Assembly: GCA_024137785.1 (NCBI GenBank)
Contig: JAHRHZ010000016.1
Span: 32,829,962-32,893,961, forward strand
DNA: 64,000 nucleotides
Source of the DNA: Ginglymostoma cirratum
Taxonomy: Eukaryota
Direction of reading: 5' to 3'
Shown here: one piece after another, positions 1 to 51,747 of the stretch
Numbering within the stretch: the first letter of the stretch is position 1
How the letters are laid out: every line of letters starts with the position of its first letter
Made by a program: the position numbers and the translations under genes
Notes under the pieces: model-generated
Told to the model about the DNA's origin: nothing
Database searches by the model: none
The model's input: only the letters and a program-made list of their open reading frames with translations

Positions 1-112
1 CCTTCATCAGAAACCATTTCTGATGAAGGGTTTAGGCCCGAAACGTCAAGTTTTCCTGCTCCTATGATGCTGCTTGACCTGCTGTGTTCATCCAGCCCCA
101 TGCTTGTTATCT
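1..112 (+). mobile_element. Penelope pseudo-LTR-derived short element (fold-back centre at window start)
   Basis: Bases 20-112 match the reverse complement of the Penelope 3' ends at 2205-2295 and 43117-43212. CCTTCATCAGAAA (1-13) is the reverse complement of TTTCTGATGAAGG (17-29), indicating an inverted arm that runs off the window. Confidence 0.8.
20..47 (+). ncRNA. Minimal type I hammerhead ribozyme motif (Penelope-type)
   Basis: CTGATGA-A-GGG(tttagg)CCC-GAAA-CG-TC: core, stem II and palindromic ACGT stem III are present; stem I is weak. Confidence 0.6.
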
Positions 113-1163: not shown

Positions 1164-2204
1164 TGAAAGGCACCTATTGGTCCGGGTGTGGGAGTACAGT
1201 CAGTCAGACATACCGGCCACTAACAGTCCTGAGATTTAACAGTGGTCAGTCATCTGTTAGTGGGAAGCTACAAAGACAGTGGTCAGGGTTCTGGTCAGTT
1301 ATGTCAAGGGGCAGTTTGTTGAAGTTGATAAGACATATATATGGCAGCATAAAGAACAGCCTTGGAGGGCACAGTAGGCTGTATGAGTGGGGTTATTGCC
1401 TGTGACCACTATCATGGCCTTCATAGGAGTGATGTAGAAGAGCAGAATGGGCATCATTAAGGTGTAATGTCAGGGTTCGGGGGAAGGGAAGACAGTTGGA
1501 GGGAAAGTCCAATATGGTGGGCTTCCACATAGGAAGATGGGTGAAAACAGACTGGAGTAAGGTAATAGGAGGAATGGATGTTCTGGAGTATGAGCTACCT
1601 GATGACCAGGCAGAGTCCAGTGCTGATGGTGTCATCCATGAGCAGTGTTCCCTTGCTGTTCTCTAGATTTGAAATGCAACTAGAAAATAGCTGGGACAAC
1701 ACCAAGATGGGTGGGGTCAGTTTCACTCTGATGGGCAAAAACATGGACTCGATGTCTGCTAGACACTAAGACATTGAAGGAAATATGTCAAGCAAGAGTT
1801 TGCAAACTGCAGCTACATTTTGGTTTCAATAATTTCTTGAACCATTTGCAATACATGCAGAGTAAACATGAGTAGACATCAGATGTTGGTCAAATATTGA
1901 TTTCACCAGGGAACTGGTGTTTGCAAAACTAACATTGGTAGCACAATGATGCAGAAGTTAGTGGCAATGACACGACAGGAAGTGAATGCTGATCAAAAAC
2001 ATCTCATCACTTATGTATCTTCCAAGGGTGCTGTTGTACAAGGAGAACATTGCTGCATCGTATGTGTCAGTTGGATGGGGGACTCTACTAAATACAGGTT
2101 TCTTGGGTGGTATGTGAGTGTGATGGGTAAGGAATGAAAGCACAGCAAGCCCTCCCTTTTTGATGCAATATGTTGGCCACACAGCCAAATATAAAAGAAC
2201 TGAG

Positions 2205-3539
2205 ATAATAAGGTGTAGAGCTGGATGAACACAGCAGGCCAGGCAGCATCAGAGGATCAGGAAAGCTGATGTTTCGGGTTTGGACTCTTCTTCAGAAATG
2301 GGGGAGAGGAAGGACACTCTGAAATAAATAGAGAGGGGGGAGGTGATGATGGAAGAAAGATAGTGGAGTAGATAGGTGGAGAGAAGACGGAGGGGTCGAG
2401 GAGGCAAGGATGCAGCCAGTACAGGTGATTATAGGTAGGGAGTTGGGATGTGGTTGGTCAGTGAGGAGGGAGGGGCGGGTAGGTGGAAGGGAAAACAGAC
2501 AGATCAAGGAGGTGGGGATGAGGCTAGTAGGTAGGAAGAGGGGGTGGGGGTTGGTCAGTGAGGTGGGAGGAGAGGATAGGTGGGAGAAAAGATGGACAGG
2601 TCAAGGAGGCGGGGAAGAGATGGGCTGGTCTTGGGATGAGGTTGGGGGTGGAGAGATTTTGAAGCTTGTGAAGTCCACATTGAGACCATTAGGCTGCAGG
2701 GTTCCCAAGCGGAATATGAGGTGCTGTTCCTCCAGCCTTCGGGTGGCATCATCACGGCACTGGAGGAGGCCTAGGATGGACATGTCGTCTGCGGAGGAGG
2801 AGGGGAAGTTGAAGTAGTTTGCGACTGGGAGATGCAGTCGTTTGTCGTGAACTGAGTGTAGATGTTCCACCAAGCGGTCCCCAAGCATCCGCTTGGATTC
2901 CCCAATGTAGAGAAACATCGGGAACAGCGGATACAGTATATAACATTAGCAGATGTGCAAGTGAACATCTGTTTAATGTGGAAGGTTTTCTTGGGGCCTG
3001 GGATGGGGTTGAGGGGGGGAGGTGTAGGGGCAGGTGTAGCACTTCCTGCGGTTGCAGGGAAAAGTGCCGGGGTGGTGGGGCTAATGGGGAGTGTGGAGCG
3101 GACAAGGGACTCATGGAGAGAGTGGTCCCTCCGGAAAGCAGATAAGGATGGGGAGGGAAATATATCCTTCGTAGTGGGGTCAGATTGCAGGTGGCGGAAG
3201 TGGCGGAGAATGATGCGTTGAATCCGGAGGTTGGTGGGGTGATAAATGAGGACAAGGGGAATTCTGTCTTTGTTGTTATTGCGGGGAGAGGGGTGTGAGA
3301 GCTGAGGTGTGGGAAACACACGAGATGCAGTCGAGGGCATTTTCGACCACTGTGGAGGGGAAATTGTGGTCCTTGAAAAACAAGGACATCTGGGATGTCT
3401 GGAGTGGAACAGCTCATCTTGGGAGCAGATGCGGCAGAGGCGAAGGAATTATGAATAGGGGATAGCATTCTTGCAGGAAGGTGGGTGAGAGGATGCAGTG
3501 AGAGTGGGTGCAGTCCCAGCATCGGCAGTTCTGAGTAAG
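2205..3539 (-). mobile_element. Penelope-like retroelement, 5'-truncated (GIY-YIG endonuclease region + pseudo-LTR)
   Basis: Frameshifted ORFs 2771-3340 and 2601-2918 give NVIYCIRCSRC / LYIGESKRMLGDRLVEHL...EQHLIFRLGTLQPNGLN. A 14-bp TSD ATAAAAGAACTGAG lies at 2191-2204 and 3540-3553, and a degenerate hammerhead core at 2268-2295. Confidence 0.92.
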
Positions 3540-5122: not shown

Positions 5123-6833
5123 AAACACGCACACATACAGTCCCTGAGTGTTTGTCAGGTTGCTGATTGATTATGACCCTGTTTTATGTTGCTGGCACAG
5201 GTCAATGTCAGCACCCAGCGCACAACCCCATATATATTAAAAATCTGAATCATGTTTCTAAGACAGATCAAAGTAAGGTATTTCATAGAGGTCAACACAA
5301 TCAATCAGCCTATCTTTGATGATTCTGCTTTTCCTAATTGAGAAGCATTTGTATTATGAGTAAGGCCCCATAGTGCAGGTCACTATCAAGTCTGAAAATC
5401 GTATGAAAAATGATCATGTAATTGACAATGACAACAAAGCACTTTGCTTAGGATCCTAAGAATCTGTATATTGGAAGAAGTAAATATTTTGAGGTTCAGG
5501 GATTATGTGATGAAGCCTAATTTTCACACAGTGAAGGTATTGTAAGGGACAAAATTATACAGGATACCATATTTGGAGTTTAGAAGGAATAAAGGAAGAG
5601 CAGTCAGAGGAGCATTGTATTGTATTGTGAATTTTACTAGTGGGCTGCAATGGAGAAAAAGGTTTGCGCTGGAAGTCAAAGGTTTTAGCGCTTTGAATGT
5701 AATGAGTTAACTGGATCAAAATAAGGATATGGCCACATAATTTGAAAGGGTTAAAAGTTTCAATGCTAGTCAGCCCTCAAAGCATGTCTGGAGTCAATTT
5801 GTTTGTCTCAAGTCAATCTGTTGCAATAGTTATCTCAGGGGTTGTCTCCTTTGCAGAAAGAAGAAGGGACAAAAATTGTCGTCTGTTTTATTACCACAGG
5901 CCATTAAGCATCAGAACAGAAACAAAGGCCATTAGGTCCATGTTTTCTATGTCTGCTCTTTATTAAAACAATCTAATACTAATCGTACTGGCCTACTCAT
6001 CTAAAGCATTAAGTACAATAAGACCAAAAGATATAAAAGCAGCATTAGGGCACTCGGCCCATCGAGTCTGCCCTGCCATTTGATCATGGCTGATATGTTT
6101 CCCAACTCCATTCCCCTGCCTTCTCCCTGTAACCCATGCTCCTCTTACCAATCAAGAACCTATTTGTCTCTGTCCTAAGTATAGTTAATTACTTGGCCTC
6201 CACAGCCTTCTGTGATAATAAATTCTACAGATGAACTACCCACTGGCTGAAGATGTTTCTCCTCATCTCAGTTCTAAAGGGTTATCCCTTGACTCTGAGG
6301 CTGTGACCCCACATCCTAGCCTCGCCTACTAGTGGAAACATCTTCTTCATGTCCACTCTATCCAGGCTTCTCAGTATTCTATAAGTTTCAATCAGATTCA
6401 TCTTCATCCTTCTTATCTCCATCGATTACAGAACCAGAGTCCTCAACTTCTCCTCAGATGACAAGCCCTTCACGCCCGGGATCATTCTTGTAAACCTTCT
6501 CTGAATTCCTTTTAATGCCAACACATAATTCCTTAGATGGCAGGCCTAAAATTGCTCACGATATTCCAAATGCAGTCTGACCAGAACGTTATACAACCTC
6601 AGCAGTAAATCTCTGCTCTTGTATTATAACCCTCTTGAAATGAATGCTAACAATGCCTTTGCCATCCTAATTGCCAACTGAACCTATATGCTAACCTGAA
6701 GACAATCCTGAACTAGGACTCCCAAGTCCCTTTATGCTTCAGCTTTCTGAAGCCTTTCACTATTCACAAAACAGTTAATGGTACGATTCTTCCTATCAAA
6801 CTGTATAACCCCTCACTTGGCTACATTCTATTC

Positions 6834-6932
6834 TTTTCCTGAAGAAGGGTCTAGACCCGAAACGTCAGCTTTCCTGCTCCTCTGATGCTGTTTGGCCTGC
6901 TGTGTTTATCCAGCTCTACACCTTGTTATCTC
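6834..6932 (+). mobile_element. 99-bp Penelope-derived hammerhead-headed insertion
   Basis: TSD TTCTATTC at 6826-6833 and 6933-6940. The sequence matches the Penelope 3' end at 43117-43212 (reverse complement). Confidence 0.85.
6839..6866 (+). ncRNA. Minimal hammerhead ribozyme motif
   Basis: CTGAAGA-A-GGGTC(TA)GACCC-GAAA-CG-TC; stem I is poorly supported. Confidence 0.6.
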
Positions 6933-9076
6933 TTCTATTCCATCTGTCCCCTGTTTGTCCACTCTCCTAGTTTGTCCAAGTCCTTCTGCAACCTCCCCAC
7001 TTCCTCAATACTCCCTGTCTTCCACCCATCTTTGTGTCATCTGCAAACTAAGCAACAATGCTCTCAATTCCTTTGTCTAGATTGTTAATGTATAACATAA
7101 ATAGTTGTCGTCTGAAAGCTGAATCCTGTAGAACTCCACTAGTCCTTATCTGCCTTTTATCCTCACTCTCTGTCTTCTGCCAGTCAGCCAATCCTCTATC
7201 AGTACTCTGCCCCTAACACCATGGGCTCTTATAGTATTTAATATCCTTTTGTGTGGCAGCTTTTCAAAGGCCTTCTGAAAAGCTAAATAGATTATATCTA
7301 TTGACTCTCCTTTGTCTAACTTGCTTATTATCTCATCAAATTATTTTAGCAGATTTGTCAGCATGATCTCCCCTTTATAAAGCAGTGCTGCCTCAGCCCT
7401 ATTTTCCCATGCATTTCCAAGAACTTTGCAATCTCATCCTTAATAGTGGATTCTAAAATCTCACTAACGAGCTAGGTCAGGCTAATCACCTACAGTTTCC
7501 TCTCTTCTGTCTCCCTCCCTTTTTTAACAGAGGTTTTACATTAACCATTTTTCAGTCCTCCGTGACCCTCTCTGACTCCAAGTGAATCCTGAAAGATCAC
7601 CACCAATCCCTTTATAAAAAGTTTAGCTATCTCCTTCAGAATTCTGGGGCATAGTCCATCAACTTCCAGGTGATTTATTTGCCTTCAGGCCTTTTAGCTT
7701 CCTAAACACCTTCTCCTTGGTGATGGCCACTATACTCACTTCCGTCCCTTGACTTCCTTGAAGTTTTGGTACGTTACTGGTGTCTTCCACTGTGAGGAAT
7801 GATGCAAAGTACCTATTCATTTCGTTTACCATTTTTGTTCCCCACTGCTGTTTCACCAGCCTCATTTTCCAATGTTTACTCTAGCTTCTCTCTTATCCTT
7901 TAAATACCTAAAAAAAACCTCTTGCAATCTTCTTTCATGTTACTAGCTTGCTTACTCTCATATTTCATCTTGTCTTCTCTCCCCTTATTGCTTTTTTAGT
8001 TATCCTCTGCTGGTTTTTTACAGGTTCACAATCGTTTGGCTTCCTACTAATGTTTGATTTTTCTTTCATTATTATTTTGTCCTGACTTCTCTTGTCAGCT
8101 ATGGTTGCCTCATCCTCCCATTATCATGCTTCTTCTTCCATGGGGTGAATTTCTGCCATGCCTCCTGAATTAACCCTGGAAATTCCTGCCATTGCTGCTC
8201 TACCATCTTCCCTGATAGGCTCCCTTTACAATCAATTCTGGCCAGCTCTTACATCTGATTCCATCTCCTCCCTCTCAAACTGCAGAGTGAATTCTAACAT
8301 TTGATGGTCATTGCCCCCATGCCGTTCCTTGATCTTCAGCTCTTTAATCAAGTCTGCCTCATTATGGATCATCAAATCCAGAATAGCCTGCTCCCCAGTG
8401 GGCTCTACCATAAGCTGCTCCAAAAAGAAAACATTTTGTAGACATTCCATAAACTCCTTTTCTTGAAATATGCTACCAACTTGATTTTACTTGCATGATG
8501 AAGTCTCCCATGATTATTGTAATAGTACCTTTCTTACATGTCTTTTTTATCTCCTGATATTTTTTTCCCACATCCTGACTACTGTTAGGAGGTCTGTACA
8601 CAGTTCCCATCAGGGTCTTTTATCCTTGTGGCATATTCTATGCTTTCTGACTCTATATTATTTCTTGCTATCAATTTAGCTTCATTTCTTACTAACAAAG
8701 CAACCCCGCACCCCCGGCCACCTGCCTGTCCTTTCAATAGGATGTAGATTTAGTTTCCAGCCCCGATCTCCTTACAGCCACATCTCTGTAATGCTCACAA
8801 CATTGTACCTACCAATCTCAATCTGCACTATAAACTCATTTACCTTGTTCATATACTGTGTGCATTTAAGTACAGCACTTTCAGTCCCACATTGATCACC
8901 CTCTTCTCATAGTTGTCCCCTTATCTTCTGTGCCTGAAGTTAGATTCCTGACCCTTTCCAAACTCTCTGTCCTATTAAAAAAAACCAAAAGAACTGCAGA
9001 TGCTGTAAATCAGGAACAAAAACAAAGTTGCTGAAAAGCTCAGCAGGTCTGGCAGCATCTGTGGAGGAGAAAACAG

Positions 9077-9114
9077 AGTTAATGTTTCGGGTCCGGTGAC
9101 CCTTCCTCAGAACT
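9077..9114 (-). ncRNA. Minimal type I hammerhead ribozyme motif (minus strand)
   Basis: The reverse complement reads AGTT-CTGAGGA-A-GGGTC(ACCG)GACCC-GAAA-CA-TT-AACT, giving stem I AGTT/AACT and a 5-bp stem II; stem III CG appears to have decayed to CA. Confidence 0.65.
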
Positions 9115-9146
9115 GAGGAAGGCTCACCGGACCCGAAACATTAACT
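9113..9146 (+). ncRNA. Minimal hammerhead ribozyme motif (plus strand, mirror copy)
   Basis: CTGAGGA-A-GGCTC(ACCG)GACCC-GAAA-CA-TT-AACT, with one stem II mismatch and the 5' stem I strand lost. Confidence 0.5.
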
Positions 9147-10447
9147 TTATTTTCTCCTCCACAGATGCTGCCAGACCTGCTGAGCTTTTCCAGCAACTTT
9201 GTTTTTGTCTCTGTCTTAAGACTTGTTCTGGAAACTTTAATAACTTCTGTTGAGCCCTGCCACACTTTACATTTTCCATGAGCTTCCATGCAACTCGTTG
9301 CCCAGAACATCTCCTCCCTTTCCTAGGACTAATGTGAGTATCTTATATATTCAAACCCGTTTCTCCACAAACAACCTTTGAGCTATGCATTTACCTCTTT
9401 AATCTTGTTGACCCTGTGTGAATTTGCCTGCGGCTCAGGTAGCAATCCAGAGATTATCAACTCTGAGCTGGAGTTCCTCAAGCAACGAACCCTTGCTGCA
9501 CAAGTGATCGCTATGAACCGCAGTGGGGTCCACCAACTCCTACAGCATGCAATTACAGCGCATCACCTAGCCCAGAATCACTATTTTAATTACTTAGTTC
9601 TTAATTTGATTTTTAAAACTTTCAGACTGGTCTGTTAGTCTGTAAATATTTCTCCTATTTACCTTCAATCTGTAAGTAACCCATAACAGTCAAATAGGAG
9701 CAATCACCAACCTACAAACTTACAGTTTACCTGTGATGTCACTCCTTTATTCTGGGCCCCTGATCCTTGAATTTAATTATCCTGTTAAAAAAAATCCTTA
9801 CAAGTGATGAGCCAAAAAAATAGCACTGAGCGAGAAATCTGAAGAAATATAGAGGCAGAACCTTTGATTATTCTTTGCCTTTGTTTTGGAGCTTTAAATT
9901 GTGTGTTCAAAATATCCATTTGATACCGGGATGTCCCCTGCCTGAAACATGCCTGGAAATGCAGTAATAGTGATATGGGTTTGGTTTCGCCGTAGAGTTT
10001 CTTGGTGGTCACCTGATATGAATTCTGGGCTGATTACGGCATGTAAACAGAGGTTCTGCCTTATCTTAGGACCCTTTGGGAAATTTTAGGAACAGAGCTA
10101 GGACAGGAGGAGAATAAAAATACGGGAGAGGATAAAATTAATTAACATGGTTGTATTTTGCCCATAAGCAGTGAAAATTGCATCACTGGGGCTTAGAACA
10201 TGAATTTGAAAGTTGAGGGGACAGTCTTTTCTTGACTGTCAAATGTTATGTGTGTAAATGTATTTTGTTAGCTAGAGGTTTTGGGCCTTTCTGGAAATAC
10301 TAATATAAATTCAGGCTAATAAATCCTCAGACTGCCACTTTGTTCTTTTACCTTAATTGAGGAGTATTGTTCAAGATCTTGAATATGAAATCAAAATGAA
10401 CCTTTTTTAACCTATAAACATGGTATTCCTTTGCTGAAATAGGGCCT

Positions 10448-10460
10448 GTTGCTTGGCAAC
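10448..10460. promoter_or_regulatory. Candidate RFX X-box
   Basis: GTTGCTTGGCAAC has palindromic GTTGC/GCAAC half-sites and sits in apparently non-repetitive DNA. This is a motif match only. Confidence 0.35.
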
Positions 10461-11002
10461 AAAATATCATGTTCCCTGGTGGCTGAGATTAAAATGGAAT
10501 AGATAAGAGAGACAGCACAGAGACTTAGCATTGTCTGAAAGCATGGAGGAGGAAAGCCATGATGAATGATAAAGCTGCACATTCATTCCAGGTCTCCAAG
10601 ATGTTTCATCTCAGACTACATTATTTTTGGCACAACACTCCATGCTGCAAAAATCTCTTGTGTTCAGCCACAATCTTCATTCTCTTAACAATGAGCACAC
10701 AATCCCATCCCATTCCAAAGCACTCAGGCCACCTTTAAATTTATTTTCACTCAGTCTGCATATTCTTTGATGTTGTCATGAACCATTCAAAACGGAGACC
10801 CTCATTCCCCATGTTTCCCAGTGGTGTTCAGGAAACCTCTTGTCTTTATGCCATCGCAAGATTCGAAATTGTGTTCACTATTTACAGGTTCACACGTTCC
10901 ACAAACCTCAAGAATGAAAACGGGTCTACTGCTGTCCCCAGAGTACAGCACTTGAAGTGATTCTCCAATCCAAGTCACAAGCATATTTGAAGTGATCAGT
11001 CT

Positions 11003-11335
11003 GCAGTATGTGTCAATGTCCAATTTGAGTCAATGTTCATTATAAGTCATCGCACAGAAAGTCAATGTGCAATGGTGTGATCTGAACATAATGTGAACCT
11101 GTGTGCAGTGTAGGGCAAAGTGCTATAGGAGTAAATGTGCAATGATTACCCTGCAGTGTGAATTAATGTGCAATGAGTTTTTATACAGCCGTGAGGCCAA
11201 CATACAGTAAGTCAACATGAAATGTGGGTCAATGTTCAATATAAGGTTAATATGCAGTGTGAGTAAACATGAGTGGGTGAACATGAATGTGAGTGGATGT
11301 GAGTGTGAACCAACATGCCATGTCAGTCAATAAAC
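11003..11335. repeat. Degenerate ~17-bp minisatellite (GTGTGAGTCAATGTGCA-like), array 1
   Basis: Recurrent gtcaatgtgca / gcagtgtgag units. Confidence 0.7.
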
Positions 11336-12654
11336 TGGATTTTCCGAGGAGTAGTAATCTAATGTAAATTGTCACTCTGCTGTTCATTTTTATGACATGA
11401 AAGGATTCTGTTTTTCTGACAGGAGATTACGAACATGGCTTCTTTGGAAATGTGGAGCCATGCTTTCAATCTGAAAGTTCCCTCATAATCCCGAACTGTC
11501 AAAGATAGAGAAATTATGCCTGATTGATTGGAAAAATACAGTGTCAGGTAGGTAGTATGCCCAGTAAAAAGTGTGCCAAGTGGGTAGGATGCCAAGTGAG
11601 AAGAGATAGTTTTCAGGCTGGTAGGGTGCAAAGTGGGCAGGCTGTCAAGGGTGTAGACCATCACAATGTAGACATTGTGGCAAGAGGCAGTGATGGAGTG
11701 TTGAGGGTCGGTCGGTGGGGGGGTGAGAGAGATTGAATCCACAGGACTGTGAGATCATGTTTGTTGGTCCTGGAAGGGGGTTCAGATATGACAATAGCAG
11801 AGGGAGTGTCATTTCAGCAGTAGGAAAGAGGAATGAGTCCTAGGGGTATCAGGGCTGAAGCAGAGGCTGAGGGATTGAATCAATGGTGGGCGGGAAGATG
11901 CCAGGTCCGGTGCAGATAAAGTAGCGATTTGGGCCTGAAGCAACAAAAAGATAGCAGGTTGGTTCTGGAGCAGTGAAAAGGACAGGAGTTGGTGGTGAGG
12001 AAAAAAGGCTCAGGTCCTTGGTATAGAATGGGGACATTGGGTCTGGTGACATGGAACTGTGGGATCCAGAGAAAAGGGAGTCTCAGATGAGGGGTGGGAG
12101 GATTTTAAAGGCCTGGAGAGGTGTAATTCAAGGTGTGCAAGGTAAATTAGTGGTCAGTTTAATAGTTATGACTTAGATTAGGTACTTCATAGTCTAAATT
12201 CTCCTAAGTAACTATTTAACTAAGTAACTATCTAAATTTCAGCAGACCATCCAAATTTTGTGACTTAAATGGATACTTTTGAGTTTCTGACCAAGGGGAA
12301 GTGTCCAGCAGAATCTGAAATTTAAAATAAAATACATTTAAAAGAACAGTGGATGCTGGAAATCTGAAACAAAAATAGAAATTGCTGGAGAGATGCTTTG
12401 CTGGTCTTGAAACTTTAGCTCTGCTTTTTCTCCACAACTGCACCAGAACTTTGGAGTTTCTCCAGTAATTTCTGTTTGAGAATTTGCAAATTCCTGGGCT
12501 ATACTGATGGAGTTAGAGATAACGGGGATTTTGGGTTGCCAAACTCAACTCCTAGCTATGCTTCAGAAACAGTTATCTGGCCATTGGAAACTCCAGGTTA
12601 ATGTGAGTTAGAAATAATGTGCCATGTATCAATGTGCCCAGTTTGTCAAAGTAC

Positions 12655-13015
12655 ATTGTTAATCAATGTACATCATTGTACAGTGTGGCTCAATGTATAA
12701 TGTTTCAATGTACGGTGTGAATCAATGATCAGTGTGAGTAAATGTGCAGTGAGTGATTGCTCAGTGTTGGTGAATGGGGAGTGTAAGCGAGTGTGCAGTG
12801 AAAGGTCAAATAGGTTGCGTCCATATTCAGTGTGAGTCAATATACAGTCGGTGCCAAGGTGCAACTTGAGGGCAATATGCAGGCATTGTGAGACATTGTT
12901 CAGCTTTTGCAAATGTACAATGAGAATCCGTGTACAGTGCAAGTGAATCTAATGCAAATCAATGTGCTCAGAGTTTTTGTGCAGTGTGATTCAATGCTCA
13001 ATGTGAGACAATATG
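12655..13015. repeat. Degenerate ~17-bp minisatellite, array 2
   Basis: Same unit family, e.g. cagtgtgagtcaatatacag and cagtgtgagtaaatgtgcag. Confidence 0.7.
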
Positions 13016-13099
13016 TTGACTATGGCGTGGGCACTCAGACCAGAAATTAACAGTGTTTGGTATAATTTAGCTCAGTTGAATCTGAATCCCAAACTTCAA

Positions 13100-13450
13100 T
13101 AAAAGGAGAACACCTTGCATGACCTCAAGGCATGTCAATGTTCTCTATAACCAATGAAGTAATTTTGACATCTCGTCTCTGTCATATTGTAGGTTAATGC
13201 ACCAGTCAATGGATGCACATCAATATTCCACAAACATCACGTGAAAGCAGATAATCTGAATGATATCTGAATGATTGCATATTGGCTCAGGACAACTGGA
13301 AAAAACAACTCCACTGTTTTTCTTCAAGAACATATCTCTTTTACAAGCACCTGAAAGAATGGATAGAGCCTTGGTTTAACATTTCAGCTGAACAGTGCAG
13401 TAGGTCCTTAATCCCGCACTGGAGTTTCAACCCATATCATGTGCTTTGCA
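13100..13450 (-). mobile_element. Old Deu-domain SINE (AmnSINE1/SacSINE1-like)
   Basis: The reverse complement resembles the Deu core and L2-type tail (GTTAAACCAAGG...CAGGTG..TGTAAAAGA; CAGATTATCTG; ACTTCATTGG). Confidence 0.6.
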
Positions 13451-13629
13451 ATGGGACTTGCATACACAATATTTCATTCAGGCTACCTTGCAATTTCTGT
13501 TGAAAGGCCTATACAGTTACTTGTACGTCACAACTGATTACATGAGTTTTGTCAGTGAAAGTTGGCATCTTAACCTGAATGTAGTGGGCATTGAAGTTGC
13601 GTTCAATTATTTACTTACACATGCATTTT

Positions 13630-13884
13630 TAAGCTGGGGTCATGATGATGGGTTGTGCTCTAAATGCAAGTTATCAGCTTTTCTTTTAAATATACATGTG
13701 GGGGATTTTCAAGTAAACCTATGCTATTTACCAGTATGAGAGTGGTAATTCTGTATTAAGCTGGGGTCATGGATGATGAGTTGTTCTTGAACTGTAAGGT
13801 ATCAGTTCTTCTGTTAAATGAACCTGTGGGGGATTTTCAAGTAATTGATGCTATTTACCAGTAAGAGAGTGGTACTTCTAAATT
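13630..13884. repeat. Tandem duplication, 2 x ~127 bp
   Basis: TAAGCTGGGGTCATG...TGTGGGGGATTTTCAAGTAA...TGCTATTTACCAGTA.GAGAGTGGTA occurs at 13630 and 13757. Confidence 0.85.
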
Positions 13885-14166
13885 AAAGAACAAACCGAAA
13901 AAAAAATAGAAATAGAGATCATTTGATGATTTTTCTGGGCAACAAAGTAGTAAGAAGAATTTGAAAACCACATGAAAAATGGTCAGACACAATTTGAAGC
14001 AGAATAGAAGTTACATTTACACTGCCACACTAGGAAACAGGAAAGCAATCACAAAAATGATACTAGCTAAACAGTGAGTACTTGATCCGTGAACTGGTTA
14101 AGTAAGTGATCTGGTGTGTGGTGAGTCAGTTCCAAATTGGGATACAGACCGTGCAGAACCATCAAA

Positions 14167-14468
14167 AAGAACAAAGAACAAAGAAAATTACAGCACAGGA
14201 ACAGGCCCTTCGGCCCTCCAAGCCTGTGCTGATCCAGATCCTCTATCTAAACCTGTCACCTATTTTCCAAGGATCTGTATCCCTCTGCTCCCTGCCCATT
14301 CATGTGTCTGTCTAGATACATCTTAAATGACGCTATCGTGCCCCCCTCTACCACCTCCGTTGGCAAAGCATTCCAGGCGCCCACCACCCTCTGCATAAAG
14401 AAATTTCCATGCATATCTCCCTTAAACTTTTCCCCTCTCACCTTGAAATCATGACTCCTAGTAATTGA
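14167..14468 (-). mobile_element. CR1/HER1 3' fragment
   Basis: ORF 14256-14474 (FFMQRVVGAWNALPTEVVE) and a (GTTCTTT)n tail. Confidence 0.88.
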
Positions 14469-14510
14469 AGACAATCAAGACAAGCTTAGGTGCCATCTTC
14501 CAGATTGAAT

Positions 14511-14945
14511 CTCAATGCATAGTGTGATTCAATGTTCCGTGAGTCAATGTGCATTCTGAATCAATATGCAGTACAGGGTCAATATACAGTATGAATCAAT
14601 GTGCAGTGTGTGCCGTTGTGCAGTGCAAGGTCAGTATGCAGTGCTTGTGAGCCAATACGCAGTGTGAGTCAATATACGTTGTGAATTAATGTGCTGTACG
14701 TTGATGTGCAATAAGTGGTCCATATGCAGTAAGTCAATGTGCAGCGTGAGTGAATGTGCAGGCCAAGTGAATGTGCTATTTGAGTCAGTGTACTGTATGA
14801 GTGAAAGTACAGTGTGAGTCAATGTGAATCAATATAGAGTGTGAATGAATGTGCAGTGTGAGTGAATCAAAGTATGGTGTGTGTCAATATGCATAGTGTG
14901 ATTGTACAGTGTTAGGTCAAAATGCATGGTGTGAATGTGCAGTTT
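14511..14945. repeat. Degenerate ~17-bp minisatellite, array 3 (best conserved)
   Basis: Many units such as gtgagtcaatgtgca and cagtgtgagtcaatatacg. Confidence 0.75.
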
Positions 14946-15051
14946 GATCAAGAGATTAAGCAAGATCCTGATATGAAGAAGTAAGAGGGTAAGATGATTA
15001 TCCTTTGACCTGTTATTTTGGTGTATCATTTGAGAAGAGGATATTAATCAA

Positions 15052-15275
15052 AAGAAAAATATTGCAAATGCTGGAAATCTGAAATAAAATAAGAAAATGT
15101 TGGAGAAACTCAATATGTCTGGCAGTGTCTGTGAAGAGAGAAGCAGGGTTAATATTTTGAGTCCAAAGGCTCTTCTTTGGAATTCCAAAATAGGATCATT
15201 GGACTTGGAATGTTAACTCTGCTTCTCTCTCAAAAGCTACTGCCAGATCTGTTAAGTTTCTACAACATATATTCT
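15052..15275. mobile_element. Older fold-back Penelope-derived element
   Basis: Diverged inverted arms around the palindromic centre TTTGGAATTCCAAA (15176-15189); the arms resemble 8978-9208. Confidence 0.65.
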
Positions 15276-16934
15276 TTTTTAAGTTGGGAACTATATTGTT
15301 ATGTGTATGTATACACTCTGTATCCAGAGTGCCAGAACAGGAACTACTGCATGACAGTCAGTGTGCCGAGGTATTATTATATCATTCTGCTCCTCAAGAT
15401 AAAATTTAGAAAAATGCATTGATGAAAGCTCCAATATTTGTGTCTGAAATTATGATTGTATAAAACTTCTGGGAGTAATTGTTGGATGTAACATTATACA
15501 TCAACAATATGGTTACCTGTATTTTTGATGCATCATACTTTTGTAATGAGTCCATTACAAAAATAAAATCAATTGGTTTCACTGCAAATCGCATTGCTTT
15601 CCATTTGCAGAAGCTTGAAAGGGGCACAAAACTGCAAATAGTGGTGATAGGAATTGTCTGTACAAAAATCTCTAGCTACCACAGTTATCAGTGTCGCTGG
15701 ATGAATCAGCTGCGCATTTACTGCCCATGATCTTGATAGACTTGTTCATTCCATTCCTCAAGGACAGTATTATAAGTTTGAGTGGTTTCTTACTGGCAAA
15801 AGTAAACTTTACAACTAATTCAAAGAGGGTCTGACCAAAAAGACCTCTTTCTAATTGCTTAAAAAAAAGAATTTTGTAAGCTATGTAATGAGGTGTGACC
15901 ATTTCTCTTAGCATCCCTGAGTTAGAAGAGGTAAGTGACCATCCAGTATCCCGCACCTGATCACGTTCCCCTGAGGCCCTTTGGAAAAGGTTGTGTGGGG
16001 ATATCTGGTGCGAAGAGATCCAGCCTCAGCTGTAATCACTCAGCTACTCTGCTGAAGTTCCCATACACTATAATGAGTCATTGGAGAAATGCCAGCGTTC
16101 GATGAACTATACCCCAGTAAGTTGTAGGAGAAGAGAGAGGAAAGTGGAAACAAAACCATTACACAGAAATGTCAACAGCTGAATTTCTCTTAAAACCAAA
16201 GCATGTCAAAAATAACAGAGCAAGGCAAAGTGCATTACTGACTAATCTTCCAAATATTTTATCAGCTTCTGAAATTAAGTACAGCCCTCTTTTAAATATT
16301 GTGACCATTTCCAAAGAAAATAGTGGAAAAATCTGAATATTTATGAAATACAATTTCTCCAGATCCACACGTAACGATATGACTTCTTCCTGCACATGGG
16401 ATGTGCTTTCTGTTGATAAGAACCAATGTATCTCACCCATATGAATGAAATTCACTCAAGTGTTAGATTGCAATATGAAAGAAAAGTAAACTTCCAATTT
16501 CTTGCAGTCACTGCCTCTGGTAACAGCCTTAGTTAAAACATTATCTCCACCTCACAGATGCATGAAAAGAAGCCATTGAGACAGCACATGCAATGCCTCA
16601 ATGGGTAAGTGCTGTACCTGTTCAGAACAGAGACTAGTTCTCAGGTTCAAACTTTGGTCTAGCCTCACCTAGCTGATATCTGCCAAGGCAAATGGGAGCA
16701 AAATGATTGGGTTCTGTGTCTCTGCAATAAAGCGGTAAACAAATTCTGTAAAAGTTCCTCTTTCCAGTTATTGTCATTTTGAGTCCTACTGGGTAATAGT
16801 TTAGGCCAAGGACAAACCTTGAGTTGAGCTCAGATGTGATAGCCCCAGTTGACTACAGTGTGGGCACTCTGGCCAGAAATTAACAGAGCTTGGAATAACT
16901 TGGGGCAGAAAGCATGTGAGTCCCAGATTTTCAA

Positions 16935-17190
16935 TAAAAAGGGAACACCTTGCGTGACCTCAAGGCATCTCAATGTTCATTTGAACCAAAGAGAAACGTT
17001 TTGAAATCTCATCTCTGTCATAATGTAGATAAATGCGTCAGCCAATGGATGTGTATCAATTTTCCACAAACATCATATGAGAGCAGATAATCTGCATGAG
17101 AATGCATATTGACTCAGGACAACCGGAAAAACTCCACTGCTTTTCTTCCAAAATATATTCCTTTTACAGGCACATGAGAGGGCAGATAGG
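16935..17190 (-). mobile_element. Deu-domain SINE fragment (duplicated copy of 13100-13370)
   Basis: Colinear with 13100-13370, including the upstream flank. Confidence 0.6.
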
Positions 17191-17215
17191 AACATCAGAA
17201 CATAGGAACAGGAGT

Positions 17216-17353
17216 AAAAACCGAAAAAACTGCGGATGCTGTAAGTTAGGAACAAAAACCAAGTTGCTGGAAAAGCTCAGCAGGTCTGGTAGCATCTGTG
17301 AAGGAAAGAAACAGAGTTAACGTTTCGGGTCCGGTGACCCTTCCTCAGTGTCT
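17216..17353 (-). mobile_element. 138-bp Penelope-derived hammerhead-headed insertion (family B)
   Basis: 14-bp TSD ATAGGAACAGGAGT at 17202-17215 and 17354-17367; inserted in a CR1 3' tail. Confidence 0.88.
17315..17348 (-). ncRNA. Minimal hammerhead ribozyme motif
   Basis: The reverse complement reads CTGAGGA-A-GGGTC(ACCG)GACCC-GAAA-CG-TT-AACT, with an intact core, stem II and AACGTT palindrome; the 5' stem I strand is truncated. Confidence 0.6.
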
Positions 17354-17934
17354 ATAGGAACAGGAGTGTCCATTCAACCTCTCCTACCTCTTCTACCACT
17401 GAATAAAATCATGGTTGATCTTTGGCCTAACTCCAAATACTTGCTTTCGAACTATATCCTTTAATACTTTTTTAAAAAATCTATCTTTCTCAGATTTAAA
17501 GTTAACAACTGATCTAGCATTCACTGCCATTTGTGGAAGTGTATTCCAAAAATTTCCCACCCTTTGTGTGTAGAAGGGCTTCCTAATATCTCTTCTGAAC
17601 TTACTGTGAAAACCACAGAAAAAGGCCTTAGGTATGATTTGAAGCAGTACTGAAGTTACATTTGCACTGGCACCCTAGAAAACAAAAAAAGCTGTTACAA
17701 AAATACTAGTAGTTAAGCAGTGACTACTTGAACAGTGAACTGGCTCGATCAATGATCTGTCAGGCAGTGAATCAGTCCCAAATTAGGAAATGGATGCTGC
17801 AGAATCATCAAGACAATTGTGGGTTCTATCCAGATGCAAAAAGAGAAAAATGTACCAATAAAAATGTCAGAGTTACATCAAAAAATAGCAGGAAATTTTA
17901 AAAAGGAGAAGCACAGCATGTATTTTTTTTCATT

Positions 17935-18243
17935 AGAATCCCTACAGTGTGGAACCAGGCCCTTCAGGCCAATAAGTCCACACCAACCCTTGGAGCATTC
18001 CACCCAGACCCATCCCCCTATAACCCACACACCCCTGAACACTATGGGCAATTTAGCATAGCCAATCCACCTAGCCTGCAGATCTTTGGACTGTGGGAGG
18101 AAACTGGAGCACCTAGAGGAAACCCATGCAGACACAGGGAGAATGTGCAAACTCCATACAGACAGTCACCTGAGGCTGGAATTGAACCTGGGACCCTGGT
18201 GCTGTGAGGCTGCAGTGCTAACCGCTGAGCCACTGTGCCACCC
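17935..18243 (-). mobile_element. HE1 SINE, full length
   Basis: Head GGGTGGCACAGTGGCTCAGCGGTTAGCACTGCAGCCTCACAG, V-domain and HER1 tail. Confidence 0.95.
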
Positions 18244-18364
18244 AATTTATATTTAATACCACCCAAATATTGCTGAATCTCTTGTAGTCTCGCTATTGTA
18301 AATCCCTTAAACATCAAGAATATTTTTTATAAATGTCAGAGTTCATTGGGAAGGGACTTCCAAA

Positions 18365-19270
18365 TGCCAAGGAATGAATTGGAAGGCCACAGATGTCCAA
18401 ACCAAACTTAGGCTATTTAAACAAAGGATTGAGCTATCCTTCCCAGACTTAGATATTGCTCAAGCAGATAAGCATAGCTTATCAGCCAGAAATATCAATT
18501 CGTTAGTTCATCACTAGGTGACATCACATGGTCAAGGACTATGACTTCTCAGACGGTCAGCTGTCTGAACAGGAAATGGAGGCAGTTACAGCTTTAATGC
18601 CCTTCAAAGATTCCCACAAAGACATCTTAGACAAAAACAAAGCTAATGACATTTTTTTTCTAACAGGTGATACTACTGAATGGCTTGCTAGGCTATTTCA
18701 GAGGGCAGTTAAGATTCAACCACATTGCTGTTGGGTCTGGAGTCACAGGTAGGCCACACCTAAGTAGGTAAGTATGTTAGTTTCCTTCCCTAAAAGAAAT
18801 TAGCGAACCAGGTGGATTTTTACAGCAATTGATTCGTGGTCATCATTTGACTTCTAGATCCAGCTTATTATTGAATTCACATTCCATCATCTGTCCTGGT
18901 GTGATTTGAACATAAGTCTCCAAAATATTGTCTGCATCTCTGGATTATTAGCCAAGCAAGCGTACCACTAGGCCATCATCTCCCCCAAATCCTCATAGTG
19001 CTAAAAGACAACTGAAAATTTGAAGCCATTGTAGCCAGAAAATAACGTTTGCAGGCATTAGATCCAGTAATATCACATTATTGGTTTAGGGCACGACAAA
19101 GAAGCAAGACATGTGGGAAGTGTATTCTGTTGTACCCACCCCAAAAGTGTCCGGCATTTCAAGATATTTGCAAGTTATGAAGTGGAAAGGATATTGAGCA
19201 TTCATATGACAAGAATTTAGCTCCAGAGTTGCAACCAAAGGCTAAAATAGGACAAAACCAAACAAAAAAC
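18365..19270 (+). mobile_element. Decayed Gypsy gag fragment (interrupted by a SINE)
   Basis: PRMNWKATDVQTKLRLFKQRIELSF N-terminus and a Zn-knuckle-like CGKC..YPPQKCPAFQDIC at about 19110-19190. Confidence 0.65.
18680..18987 (-). mobile_element. tRNA-derived SINE (same family as 4768-5122)
   Basis: The reverse complement starts GGGGAGATGATGGCCTAGTGGTA and contains GTGACTCCAGACCCAACAGCAATGTGGTTGA. Confidence 0.75.
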
Positions 19271-19289
19271 ATGTACTGCATGTTTGGAG

Positions 19290-20373
19290 GCAAGATGGGC
19301 CAAAGTGAGAAGAGAAAACAGAAAGCAAAGAGTGGGCATAAATGAGTGTTTTTCTGGTTGGCAATCAGTGGCTAGTGGAGTGTCTCAGTGATCAGTGTTG
19401 GGACTGCAATTGTCTACAATTTACAAAGGTGATTCAGAGTTGAGGACCAAGTGTAGTCTGTCTGGTAAAATCATTGTAGAGCAAAGTGGGCAGAGGACAC
19501 TGAAAGTCTGCTCAGGGCTATAGATAGGTTAAATCAGAGGGCAAGGGTCTGGCAGATGGAGTACAATGTTGGTAAATGTGAGGTCATCCATTTTGGTAGG
19601 AATAACAGCAAAATGGACTATTATTTAAATGTTGAAAAAAATGCAGTTTGCTGTTGTGCAGAAGGACCTGAGTATCCTTGTTCATGAATCACCAAAAGTT
19701 GGTTTGCAGATGCAGCAGGTAATTAAGAAAACAAATTGAATATTGTCCTTCAGTGCTAGAGGGATGGAGTTTAAAAAATAGGGAGATTGTGCTGCAGCTG
19801 CATAGGGTACAGGTGAGGCCACACCTGGAGTGCTGAGTACAGTTTTGCTCTCCTTAGTTGGGAACGGATGTACTGGCAGTGGAGGGAATGCAGAGGAGGT
19901 TCATAAGTTAATTCCGGAACTGAGAGTGGCTTAAGAAGAGACATTAAGTAGACTGGGACTATACTAATTGGAATTTAGAAGAGTGGGCGGGGATCTTACA
20001 GAAACATATAATATTATGAAGGGAGAAGATAAGAGAGAAGCAGGGAGGTTGTTTTAACTGGCAAGTGAAACCAGAACTAAGAGGCATAGCCTCAAAATAA
20101 AGAGGAGATTTAGGACTGAGTTGAGGAGGATCTTCTTCACCCAAAGGGTTGTGAATCTGTGGAATTCCCTGCCCAGTGAAGCAGTTGAGGCTGCCTTGTT
20201 GAATGTTTTTTAAGGCAAAGATAGATAATTTTTTGAACAATTAGGGAATTAAGGTTTATGGTGAATAGGAGGGGGTGGAGCTATGTCCACAAAAATGCTA
20301 TGATCTTATTGAATGGCGGAGCAGGCTCAAGGGGCCAGATGGCCTACTCCTGCTCCTGGTTCTTATGTTCTTA
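19290..20373 (+). mobile_element. CR1/HER1 LINE 3' ~1.1 kb
   Basis: WQMEYNVGKCEVIHFG and FFTQRVVNLWNSLPSEAVE peptides; tail CCTACTCCTGCTCCT..TTCTTATGTTCTT. Confidence 0.9.
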
Positions 20374-20839
20374 ATTCAGAGCAAAAAGAACTCCCAAGGT
20401 TGGAGAATTTCCACATTGTGAAGTTGACACATTGGCCTGAATCTTCTGGTCTGAATTGAAATGTCTATTCGGATCCAGACCAGATTAAAAATTACCCATT
20501 TACGTTTTGTGCTTTTTTTGAGTGGGTTTCTAACCTAGGATCCTTCCAAGCTGAAGAAGGGTAATTGAGCCCTGAAGTCCACAAAGACAGGAACAGGGAA
20601 CATAAAAATGGAAACCACACCACTGTTTTCAGCAGTTAGTGACTTATTCTATGGTTTACATGCCTAGTAGCTACTTTGGCAGCTATTGAAAGAAGGTATG
20701 TGCGAGAATAGGGTGAATGGGTAGGTCGAGAGTACTGAGCGCGGTAACCATGAGAATTGGTGATAGAAATTTGGAGACAGATAGCTGAAGATGTCATGGA
20801 GGTAGAGTGCAAGATGGGTGAGTGTGATTAGGGACTGGA

Positions 20840-21155
20840 GTTTTCAGATTTTGACCCAGTGAACATGAAGAGCTGATGGTACCTTTCCAAGTGAGGATGG
20901 CATGTGGCTTGTCAAGGAAACTTGTAGGTGATGTGTTCCTATGTACCTGCTGCCATTGTCCTTCCAGATAGTAGTCACGGGTTTGGAAGATGCTGTCAAA
21001 GGATCTTGAGTGAATTTCTGCAGTGCACTTGTAAATGGTATACACAGCTGCTACTGAGTGTTGGTGGTGGGGGGAATGAATGTTTATGGATGTGATGCCA
21101 ATCAAGGGGGCTGCTTTGTCCTGAATTGTGTCAAGTTTCTTAACAACAGCTAGCA
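20840..21155 (-). mobile_element. CR1-clade LINE fragment (second family)
   Basis: KKLDTIQDKAAPLIG...IHSPHHQHSVAAVYTIYK; homologous to 47955-48580 and 57610-58600. Confidence 0.7.
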
Positions 21156-21302
21156 CTAATTAAATGTAAGTAACCAACCCACATACAATTTGGAAACAAG
21201 CAAGTGAGAAATTCCGATCTCCAGAAGGTTGTACCATCCTAAGATCTGAGAGGATTGTCAAAGCACCTCTTTGGTATAAATCCTCTTACACATGTAAATT
21301 TT

Positions 21303-21429
21303 TTCTGAGGAAGGGTCCAGACCTGAAACATTAGCTTTCCTGCTCCTCTGATGCTGCCTGGCCTGCTGTGTTCATGCAGCTCCACACCTTGTTATCTCAG
21401 ACTCCAGCACCAGCAGTTCCTACTATCTC
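21303..21429 (+). mobile_element. Penelope-derived hammerhead-headed insertion (family A)
   Basis: TSD TAAATTTT at 21295-21302 and 21430-21437; core CTGAGGA-A-GGGTC(CA)GACCT-GAAA-CA-TT starts at 21305. Confidence 0.82.
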
Positions 21430-24004
21430 TAAATTTTACATATTTGTTTCTGTGTAAATAGGTTGCAACTGCCTAATAGACACATAATTTCGTTCGGTGC
21501 ATGCAATTTTATCTTAGAGAAAAATGGCATGTTGTCTTACTGCTTTAAGAGCTGAATATGATAATAATGTAAAAATCCACCAGAAGGTACGACAAGGCCA
21601 GCAGCCATGATGAGTCTGAGTATCAACATTACAGGCTAAAGATACGTAGAGAAATTGCTCTCACTGCAAGTTGTCAGTTTGTCTGCTAAGTAAACCTTTT
21701 AAGTAAACTGAACTATGCTACTTACAAATCCAGCATTGGGGTGGGAATTCTGTGTTAAGAAACATAACACCAGAATGCAATAATGGATACCTACCAGAAT
21801 AATGATTTTTGCTCTCACTAGCCCTGATCTTGTTTCTTCAGGTGCCTTTTCATTCTCTGTGCCCAGAGGCAGAATTTCCCCAATCTCAAGACAGTGGGTG
21901 TGAAAGCAATGGGGGGGTCCCTTGGCAGTGAGCTGTGATCATAGGAGTCCTTGACACATTCTGTCACTGGGGAATGTCCTAAAAACAGCGCAGAATATTG
22001 ATATGCTAGAGGTGAGTGGCCAATTTAAATTCAGAGCAATTGGAATGGCCTGTTGGAATGTTACCAGTGGTGGAGCAGCTCTGTGGTCCACACATGGGAA
22101 CTATCACCTCACTGGAGCCAGTCTTCCTGCAATAGAGTGGGGGCCCATGAGATCCAAAGGTTCCATGCTCAAAAGACAGGACATCCAGCAGCCGAAGACC
22201 TGCCACCTGAGGGTTCTCTGCACCAAGTAATCTGCTTGCTTGGCATCTCTGAACTTTTGCTTTAAATGTACATCTTGGGGTCTTTATTTTCAGCCTGCCT
22301 CAGTAATGCCCATTTCACAGACTGGGCCAATTGCATTGGGAGCCTTCCTGTTGTCCTCAGATGGTGTGATTGGAGATGATCAATTAATAGGCTATCTCCA
22401 AAAAGATAGCTCCTTCTTGGGTTGAGAAACATTTTAGCCATGATTGAATAATGGAGCAGACTCAATAGGCCAAATGGCCTCATTTTGCTCCTTTATCTTA
22501 CGGTATTATGGTCTTGGTGCCTGACAAGCGTCAGCTGGTGAAACCTAGCATCAAGGTTTTAAAATCTGTGGGGGAAATGCAGCTTCACATATTTGCCATG
22601 TGAACAGTGAACTCCTGTCTACCATTCTCAACTTTGTTCAATAAACCATTGGCTTATCAGGTAAATAGCCAAATGAGTGGAGAGACATTCTACTGTAATG
22701 AGGGATGAAGGGTGCCAACAGCATTGTTTCAGATGTGTTTTCTAATTAGTCCAGTTTCTTTTAACTTGAATCCCTTACATTGGGATCATGAGGGGTTAAC
22801 TCTATACCACAGGACAGTTAATCTTGAGGCTGTTTGTTTTTCAAGCAAAAGACGAAAAGTGTAATAATTGCTAATATAAGAAAATACATAAAAGAGAAGA
22901 GGGCAATTAAGAACGTGTCTCCAGGAATGGGTGAAGTGATCATTTCTGCTGAATGGCTTCATTTTGCCTGTAATAGGTTTTATCTCCGCTAATATAGATA
23001 GGAAGTACCTGAGACACCTGCGGCCTATATTACACAACGCCAGACTGTTTATGACCTCCAAAGCTCTGTAAATCCAAAGGGTGAAAGTGGGGGAGGGGTG
23101 TTAGTGTCTGGTGAAAATACTGTAAGGACCAAGCCTCCTGGATAATATTATTTCAGCTCTCATTCCCCTGTTGATTCTTTGAGATTCATTAGCTACTTTC
23201 ATCAGTATCGGAAGTTAGACTTATTACCCTTTTTAATTTAACAAAATTAGCCTGGAGACACCAGTTATAATTCTTCATAAGTGGAATTTTAAATCACCAA
23301 TGTGCTTGATACTTTGCCTTGTGGGCATTGAACATAAATTTATGCAGTATCCTATTAAAAAAGCAAAAAACATCTGAAGTTGCTTCCACTGTTTGTAGCC
23401 TAGAATATTCAGTGGGGGATCCAACATTTATTCCCGACTGCCTACATGAACATATCTACTTTCACGCTAACTCGAGGTTAAATGCATGTTTTATATGGAG
23501 TCACCTTTTCAACCTTTAAACATTTACCAAAGGGATACCAAGAATTTTTTGACAAACCTCCTCTCTCCTGTTCTATTATATTGCTCTTTATCAGTTATGA
23601 ACATGCTCAAAAAGAATCTGAGATGATTTTAGGTCAATATCATTGTGCTTCTTTGTGGGCAGAATGGAATAGTGAAATCTATTGGTTAGGCTTTATCTGA
23701 GCAGCATTTAGAGTCATAAAATTGGGCATACCCAGGTCCAGAAAGGGGGAAATGACCCCTGTATCTGATCACTATCCTGTGATCCAGACCAAACAGCGCA
23801 TGGTTAAATATACAGAGAGGGCCAAATCAGTTCAAATGGCATGTCTTAGAGATGCTTGGTTCCATTTTTTAATGGACCTAATGAACAGTTTGGCAGGTCA
23901 GTGATCAGTCTGAACTCTCAAAAGGTTGAGAACAGAAGGTGTGGTCCCCAGTCACAAGTTCCTAAATTGAGTGGAAGACCTGGTTAAAATACATAGGCAG
24001 TTTA

Positions 24005-33960: not shown

Positions 33961-33989
33961 CATTTACCTCCTCATGTCCTTATTCTTAT

Positions 33990-45847: not shown

Positions 45848-45997
45848 TCTGATGAAGCTCTGTAAAATGATGAAGGGTTGTAATAGGAAGCTATTTTCCC
45901 AGGTGTGGAATCCAAATGAGGGAATGTAATCTAATAATTAGATTTAGACCAATTAGGAGTGAAATCACAAAAAGGGGAAACAAAAAAACCAGAACAC

Positions 45998-49364: not shown

Positions 49365-49473
49365 AATCTACAAAAACAGACGTTGTTGGAAAAGTTCAGC
49401 AGGTCTGGCAGCATCTGTGAAGAAAATAATCAGAGTTAGCATTTTGGGCCCGGTGACCCTTCCTCAGAACTGG
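49365..49473 (-). mobile_element. Penelope-derived family B short element with mutated hammerhead
   Basis: The reverse complement reads AGTT-CTGAGGA-A-GGGTCACCGGGCCC-AAAA-TG-CT-AACT (GAAA mutated). Confidence 0.7.
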
Positions 49474-51620: not shown

Positions 51621-51747
51621 CTTGTTTTTGATTCATTCACAGGATGTGGGTTCAGTGGTTAAGTCAGCATTTACTGCCCATCTCTAATTGTCCAGGAATT
51701 AGATAAGGGACAACCACATTGCTGTGGGTGTGTAGTCACATATATGT

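Follow-up and report, generated by a model that had tools for sequence, protein, structure and literature searches.

Short Penelope-derived insertions in a Ginglymostoma cirratum contig share a fixed 5′ edge at a promoter-like position beside the hammerhead ribozyme

The window considered here, by which we mean the whole 64,000-nucleotide stretch analyzed (Ginglymostoma cirratum, assembly GCA_024137785.1, contig JAHRHZ010000016.1, positions 32,829,962 to 32,893,961 of the forward strand), carries short and long copies of two families of Penelope-like elements (PLEs), called A and B below, whose short copies begin at the core of a hammerhead ribozyme (Table 1). A sequence-only reading of this DNA had singled out three short insertions, at 6834-6932, 17216-17353 and 21303-21429, and the target-site duplications (TSDs) that it assigned to them, of 8, 14 and 8 bp, are indeed exact. 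It had also placed the core 2-5 nt inside each boundary, with a motif ending in the cleavage triplet (UH). The offsets of 5, 5 and 2 nt stand (cores at 6839, 17348 on the minus strand, and 21305), but the five nucleotides at 17349-17353 mismatch the family B template and are untemplated filler, and the UH triplet of the 21303 copy is mutated. The further boundaries that it listed at 20, 9113 and about 49470 belong to real copies; the one at 9113 forms an arm of a head-to-head pair, and the last lies at 49467, where no TSD above 6 nt was found. Positions within elements are given below in element orientation with the C of CUGANGA as 0, and the interval -8 to +3 is referred to as the edge window.

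Table 1. Penelope-derived copies, their flanking duplications and promoter-like motifs in the window
Feature	Position	Strand	Remark
Left TSD of family A short copy, 8 bp	6826..6833	+	exact repeat
Family A short copy	6834..6932	+	core from 6839; 3′ end at the first reverse transcriptase start site (+94)
Right TSD of family A short copy, 8 bp	6933..6940	+	exact repeat
TSD at 3′ end of family B short copy, 14 bp	17202..17215	+	exact repeat
Family B short copy with tail	17216..17353	-	ends at +132; core C at 17348
TSD at 5′ end of family B short copy, 14 bp	17354..17367	+	exact repeat
Left TSD of family A short copy, 8 bp	21295..21302	+	T-run overlaps template start (microhomology)
Family A short copy with 30-nt tail	21303..21429	+	ends at +124; core from 21305; UH triplet mutated
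Right TSD of the 21303 copy, 8 bp	21430..21437	+	
Family A copy	14..112	+	starts at -6; remnant of inverted arm before it at window edge
Head-to-head pair of family B short copies	8980..9208	.	joined at imperfect palindrome, about -1/0
Candidate 8-bp TSD of the head-to-head pair	8964-8971 / 9208-9215		
Family B short copy	49370..49472	-	starts at -5
Long 5′-truncated family A copy	43119..44139	-	GIY-YIG C-terminus, 3′ untranslated region, pseudo-LTR; 11-bp TSD
TATA-like box TATTTA	43242..43247	-	first T 31 nt upstream of predicted start A; putative function
Initiator-like CCATTT	43213..43218	-	putative function; predicted +1 at the A of position 43216, 4 nt upstream of CUGA
Second long family A copy	2200..3252	-	continues past 3252
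TATA-like box in second long family A copy	2325-2330	-	predicted +1 at 2299

Each of the two families is the 3′ end of an autonomous, endonuclease-bearing (EN+) GIY-YIG Penelope-like element. This parentage had been recognized for family A, and the long A copies in the window do encode a GIY-YIG C-terminus; family B had been set apart by its tail, but the description was incomplete in that the long B copies, too, run into a GIY-YIG frame. A 495-aa open reading frame (ORF) at locus L182 contains reverse transcriptase (RT) motifs followed by GIY-YIG (PF01541, 26.5 bits, above the cut-off of 22.6), with an RVT_1 match (E 0.008) below its Pfam cut-off, and the family B frame at L208 matches GIY-YIG at E 7e-4, again below the cut-off. 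The 176-aa fragment from the window gave no Pfam match when used alone, and a PDB sequence search with the L182 frame returned just two weak matches, to an unrelated protein. Upstream of GIY-YIG, both families possess a C-X4-C-X2-C linker finger. In the sections of PMC8557442 available to us, a CX2-5CxxC finger within the linker that joins RT to endonuclease is attributed to Neptune and Nematis and not to Penelope or Poseidon; by this feature the sequence points to parents of the Neptune/Nematis type, and the label Poseidon was dropped for the ORF on the same ground. The 3′ ends of the copies are bimodal, lying 30-36 nt apart at +92-94 and +124 in family A and at +93-98 and +132 in family B, which corresponds to the optional tail and agrees with the two internal RT start sites of PMC11167929. 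Short copies display no private variants, and identity among short copies (0.851 in A, 0.827 in B) equals that between short and long copies (0.861 and 0.825), so that the short copies do not form a lineage of their own.

The 5′ ends were collected from the window and eight further blocks, 1,039,424 unmasked bases in all; the blocks were hand-picked and not random, and four of the 12 fetched were wholly N and were dropped. Copies were anchored downstream of +30 at 80% identity or more and extended upstream against one single long copy, which yielded 108 ends for family A (126 matches, less 18 censored by N or by a sequence edge) and 64 for family B. Relative to CUGANGA these ends pile up in the edge window, which contains 43 of the 108 A ends (15 at -3 and 9 at -4) and 34 of the 64 B ends (9 at -4), whereas background truncation would place there 5.5 of 71 copies at risk in A and 2.4 of 43 in B (p 8e-30 and 5e-35). 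The loss per nucleotide is 5.0% (A) and 6.6% (B) inside the edge window and 0.1-1.2% elsewhere, an enrichment of about ten times the background truncation rate, and some 60% of the A copies and 80% of the B copies that reach the core stop within these 12 nt. The edge is sharp and one-sided, with none of 28 (A) or 9 (B) copies ending at -9 to -20, and the peak persists when solo and inverted copies are taken separately. The 77 edge copies comprise 55 solo, 21 inverted and one tandem copy; a TSD of at least 8 bp (8-19 bp) flanks 20 of the 55 solo copies, as compared to 2 of the 209 shuffled pairs that served as the null. The earlier claim of a non-random, Penelope-derived 5′ edge is borne out. 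The sample holds about 74 edge copies per Mb, and for a genome of 4.36 Gb this small sample would extrapolate to approximately 300,000. Genome-wide, the exact 27-nt B core occurs 4,979 times, and only 737 of these copies match exactly for a further 8 nt upstream, a drop that mutation explains in part.

The same edge is present in copies joined to the ORF. A set of 29 ORF-start loci was fetched, of which 25 were anchored and 4 were not (one is the query's own locus, and two are arms of one insertion); 10 of the 25 reach +3, and 6 of these end in the edge window while 4 extend at least 125 nt further upstream. In 9 of the 17 tandem junctions, the downstream copy has its start at -8 to 0 and abuts ORF fragments that differ in length, which argues that the RT leaves its template at the edge. 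The trinucleotide CTG precedes 9 of 30 B loci that start at -4 (background 2%), and resembles a re-copying of the template end or start. Many of the family A 5′ junctions examined (L002-L030) carry a lengthened T-run before the core, which suggests stuttering by the RT, or A-tailing, where the template ends, although the query that found these loci favoured T-runs. A further group of loci (L151-L179, and block B29 at 50757-51277) holds internally deleted units of about 220-350 nt, composed of a pseudo-LTR (pLTR; LTR, long terminal repeat), an ORF start and a second pLTR, some of them in tandem; L152 has several, each with a hammerhead and a TATA box. These resemble the arrays of non-LTR retrozymes, but they look like independent template jumps because the junctions differ between loci.

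Several simpler origins of the edge were considered and discarded. As the sequence-only reading had already noted, the edge is not the predicted cleavage site, which lies about 30 nt further downstream; a start of the copies at that site is ruled out by the 3 of 108 family A ends at +28. Microhomology of T-runs alone is ruled out by the other upstream T-runs, which catch 0-1 ends, and a splice-acceptor origin by flanks that are unique and TSD-adjacent and by an A edge that does not follow AG; one spliced-junction pattern for family A had no matches across the fetched loci. The scarcity of ends at the cleavage site is consistent with uncut RNA as the substrate, as described for the anole element of PMC11167929.

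Long copies extend beyond the edge and permit the sequence upstream of it to be inspected. In family A they have TATTTA at -35 and CC-A-TTT with its A at -4, a spacing of 31 nt, and in family B TATAAA at -33 and TC-A-GTT with its A at -4, a spacing of 29 nt; a distance of 29-31 nt is canonical for promoters composed of a TATA box and an initiator (Inr). YATWWA starts at -35 in 21 of 34 long candidates labelled A, a list that includes a few inverted or mislabelled rows, and the TATA-like box of long B copies lies at -33 to -36. In older B-like copies a YATAAA-type box persists at roughly this distance while the flanks diverge, and the upstream sequences of the two families differ, both nonetheless having the TATA-like box and the initiator.

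The ribozyme itself was parsed in 71 motifs. Pairs 1-5 of stem II are paired in 87-96% of them, and the palindrome at 15.2-16.2 is CG in at least 41 of 71, most others having CA/TG as from CpG decay; the core boxes, the bulge, the G-C base of stem II and this palindrome together agree with the description of a minimal type I hammerhead. The Rfam hammerhead models gave no match in the window at E up to 5, and the Rfam scan of the window returned only inverted-pair hairpins matching miRNA models far below their gathering scores. Stem covariation was not in excess of shuffles, the columns hardly varying among such close families; by eye, a compensatory G-C to A-U swap is seen in stem II of older B-like copies, and stem I has U-G in one family and G-C in the other. 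The pairing of stem I stops at -4, and stem I is weak in an A subfamily with AGCY. The cleavage triplet of family B is GUU, which is usually a poor cleaver. The sequence that follows the TATA box (-29 to +4 in A, -30 to -1 in B; 43208-43241, minus strand, in the window) is complementary to stem I and the core, and judged by this complementarity a read-through RNA could sequester the ribozyme by upstream pairing, while an RNA starting at -4 could not.

Given these positions, it is reasonable to postulate that the edge is the 5′ end of the element's mRNA, i.e. its transcription start, and that the short copies, which hold the final 95-135 bases of the elements, are run-off cDNAs of a strong-stop-like kind; we consider this likely. 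From the motifs and the ends we infer promoter activity, an RNA 5′ end and an order of events as follows. From the TATA box and initiator in its pLTR, the element would begin its RNA at the A four nucleotides before CUGANGA, the first base of stem I (43216 in the long copy of the window). The element's endonuclease would nick AT-rich DNA, and the nicked target would prime the RT at internal sites (+94 or +124 in A, about +96 or +132 in B). Where priming took place on the 5′ copy of the pLTR, the RT would pass the uncut hammerhead and reach the end of the RNA after about 100-135 nt. Joining of the cDNA to the target would leave a TSD, in many cases together with filler or a brief re-copied piece of the template start. 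Alternatively, two cDNAs might pair at the imperfect palindrome that surrounds CUGA and yield a head-to-head pair, or the RT might jump to another RNA segment to yield a tandem copy. Long truncated copies would arise from priming on the 3′ pLTR, and short copies, which are devoid of a TATA box, would be dead ends. Either mRNAs that bear the ORF or short read-through RNAs of solo pLTRs with a promoter would serve as templates, and the latter may be mobilised in trans.

A number of observations weigh against a transcription start at the edge. The mode of the ends lies one base inside the predicted start (15 at -3 and 9 at -4 in family A, and, among exact B matches, 1,166 at -3 and 714 at -4), and at 8 of the 17 tandem junctions the downstream copy starts at -52 to -102, which would need longer RNAs or internal deletion. 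The upstream motifs are also splice-acceptor-like, and in family A also an antisense AATAAA, and both young families have weak upstream hairpins (-4.3 and -7.3 kcal/mol) whose 3′ arms lie on the edge. The Penelope promoter of D. virilis is TATA-less and its hammerhead lies behind an intron beginning 46 nt downstream of the start, so that a TATA box and initiator at the hammerhead is not a general layout. Furthermore, the signal sought as a trace of the cap, a G before the edge, is confounded. Bases before the edge were counted by hand in the first 100 listed of 714, 1,166, 292 and 1,356 matches: among the first-listed B matches G precedes the -4 edge in 45 of 100 (A in 42, T in 13) and the -5 edge in 24 (A in 76; Fisher p 1e-4 against -4), and among the first-listed family A matches it precedes the edge in 29 of 100. 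Most of the G cases inspected are CTG re-copies, microhomology or TSD, however, and the clean arrangement of a TSD, one G and the start was seen at only 2 of the 30 A loci and at none of the 30 B loci; the sample added one further B case. In assembled contigs of four sequencing runs, loose ends of family B pile up at -3 to -5 (places 1630-1632) in all four, a pile-up that repeats the genomic edge and is not counted as support. The summed contig depth drops across the edge 18-44-fold in three runs guessed to be RNA and 7-fold in a large run of unknown kind, and this is not counted either, contigs being unable to show starts or levels.

One rival account places no RNA end at the edge: the RT, in copying the 3′ pLTR of a long RNA, would stall at the upstream hairpin (-30 to -23 pairing with -7 to +4), or the nascent cDNA would snap back or anneal at the imperfect CUGA palindrome, and the edge would be a preferred truncation site. 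In each of the young families the 3′ arm of a 7-8 bp hairpin does cover the edge, and the palindrome is where head-to-head junctions lie, both for the pair at 9111 of the window and at many other loci, palindromes at inverted pLTR junctions also being described in the available text of PMC3846280. We nevertheless regard this as unlikely. Stem II (-5.1, -8.4) and the tail fold (-11.9) are stronger than these hairpins and are traversed with a loss of about 1% per nucleotide; the ends do not fall at the foot of the hairpin stem but within it, by 2-4 nt in B and about 7 nt in A; older long B-like copies, by eye, keep the TATA-like box and not clearly the hairpin; and 55 of the 77 edge copies are solo and not fold-backs. 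Stalling at the ribozyme fold, which the sequence-only reading had offered as one option, fits poorly as well, given that the edge is 5′ of the whole fold, that stem II is traversed with so little loss and that the TATA/initiator pair sits exactly at the edge.

Two further accounts retain less credence. An RNA 5′ end at -4/-3 might be real and yet derive from processing, whether nuclease trimming as far as stem I or a protein footprint, or a cut made by some other activity; the coincidence of the edge with the 5′ end of stem I, where pairing stops, and the unclean cap-G signal are what one might expect of it. Such processing leaves unexplained why two families have TATA and initiator motifs with a canonical spacing, stem I is weak in the AGCY subfamily, and we know of no activity that trims or cleaves in this way; it appears to us very improbable. 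The other, also offered by the sequence-only reading, is a discrete, self-propagating, non-autonomous ribozyme-headed retroposon, retrozyme-like or resembling a short interspersed element (SINE), mobilised in trans by Penelope. The fixed size classes, the TSDs and the density of edge copies would suit it, rare tandem units of about 220-330 nt exist, and non-autonomous PLE derivatives and PLE-derived retrozymes are published. The analysis turns against it nonetheless: both families have ORF-bearing long copies, the ORF-linked parents share the edge, no variant is private to short copies and their mutual identity is no greater than that with long ones, a single edge copy of 77 is tandem, and the unit does not span from cleavage site to cleavage site. 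Of the accounts weighed here it is the one to which we assign the least probability.

The transcription-start account, which we prefer, may be extended. In LTR retroelements, minus-strand strong-stop DNA is primed internally near the RNA 5′ end, runs off at the cap and undergoes a template jump. If the likeness were pursued, -4 to +94/+124 would be an R region present at both RNA ends, the template jump would rebuild the pseudo-LTR, the hammerhead at mRNA +1 would fold only there (an upstream strand sequestering stem I and the core in read-through RNA), and hundreds of thousands of abortive products would have been integrated. This fuller version seems to us doubtful. The likeness to strong-stop DNA is an analogy and not membership: priming here would be by nicked target DNA and not tRNA, and the short product would be integrated directly, with no RNase H or integrase.

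The observations bear on how PLEs rebuild their pseudo-LTRs and on what their hammerheads do. Were the edge the RNA start, the genome would keep a large natural record of the first step of reverse transcription, the promoter would be predicted at the level of the base, and the ribozyme would sit at the very 5′ end of the mRNA, where cleavage would take off the cap along with about 32 nt, and the uncut RNA would be what is copied; the abundance of solo minimal hammerheads in such genomes would also be accounted for. Such a start would likewise caution against an annotation of these hammerheads as SINEs or retrozymes.

Other repeats in the window include older, diverged family B-like copies at 15056-15280, 4497-4570 and 55773-55878, among them a head-to-head pair at a short palindrome. 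An inverted pair of a third short repeat family lies at 59175-59307, and a similar tail follows another hammerhead-like motif in block B16 near 65144; this repeat is possibly a third Penelope family. A dispersed repeat family occurs at 51620-52007 (an inverted pair), 41484-41843, 4768-5111 and 18699-18985, and a SINE-sized repeat of about 310 bp has five copies, at 17932-18243, 33986-34268, 45539-45852, 52359-52668 and 61878-62193.

With respect to known systems, the comparisons that follow draw on the sections of the cited papers available to us. The parents resemble EN+ PLEs of the Neptune/Nematis type (PMC8557442, PMC3846280) in having RT and then GIY-YIG in one ORF with a CX4CxxC linker, 3′ ends at two sites some 30 nt from each other (an optional tail of 30-40 bp), and head-to-head, inverted and partial-tandem insertions with TSDs of variable length. 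Putative TATA and Inr motifs were noted there in the pLTRs of rotifer elements; the upstream copy is described as variably 5′-truncated in those elements, however, whereas here most copies reaching the core end in one 12-nt window that is promoter-like. The ribozymes are akin to the minimal type I hammerheads that metazoan PLEs carry (Cervera and De la Pena 2014, PMC4209133) in their core boxes, the bulged base before stem II, G10.1-C11.1, the palindromic 15.2-16.2 and the short stem I. Most metazoan minimal hammerheads are said in that work to be single elements, 'probably related to truncated PLEs', and its available text mentions neither a fixed 5′ edge nor TSDs nor any connection with the transcription start, unlike the present case. 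The anole Poseidon element (Frangieh 2024, PMC11167929) likewise has two internal RT start sites, which define the tail in vitro, and AT-rich targets; both strands are nicked and extended and uncut RNA is the main substrate. Its ORF starts inside the hammerhead, here about 165 nt downstream, and in the available main text the 5′ ends of the products are not mapped to a transcription start. Non-LTR retrozymes (PMC7229834, bioRxiv 10.64898/2026.07.22.740005) are likewise non-coding, bear hammerheads and derive from PLE pLTRs; they are made of tandem 150-450 bp units with a hammerhead in consecutive units and give circular RNAs, whereas the copies described here are dispersed or inverted monomers that form no separate lineage and whose unit is not bounded by cleavage sites.

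In the literature searched, which covered few subscription papers, we found neither a fixed 5′ edge at a transcription start nor strong-stop products of PLEs. Solo minimal hammerheads from truncated PLEs, TATA and Inr motifs in rotifer pLTRs, transcription starts within pLTRs, which are already in print, and tandem PLE-derived retrozymes are all known. Set beside these systems, the parts are thus all familiar, and it is the link between them that is a new lead.

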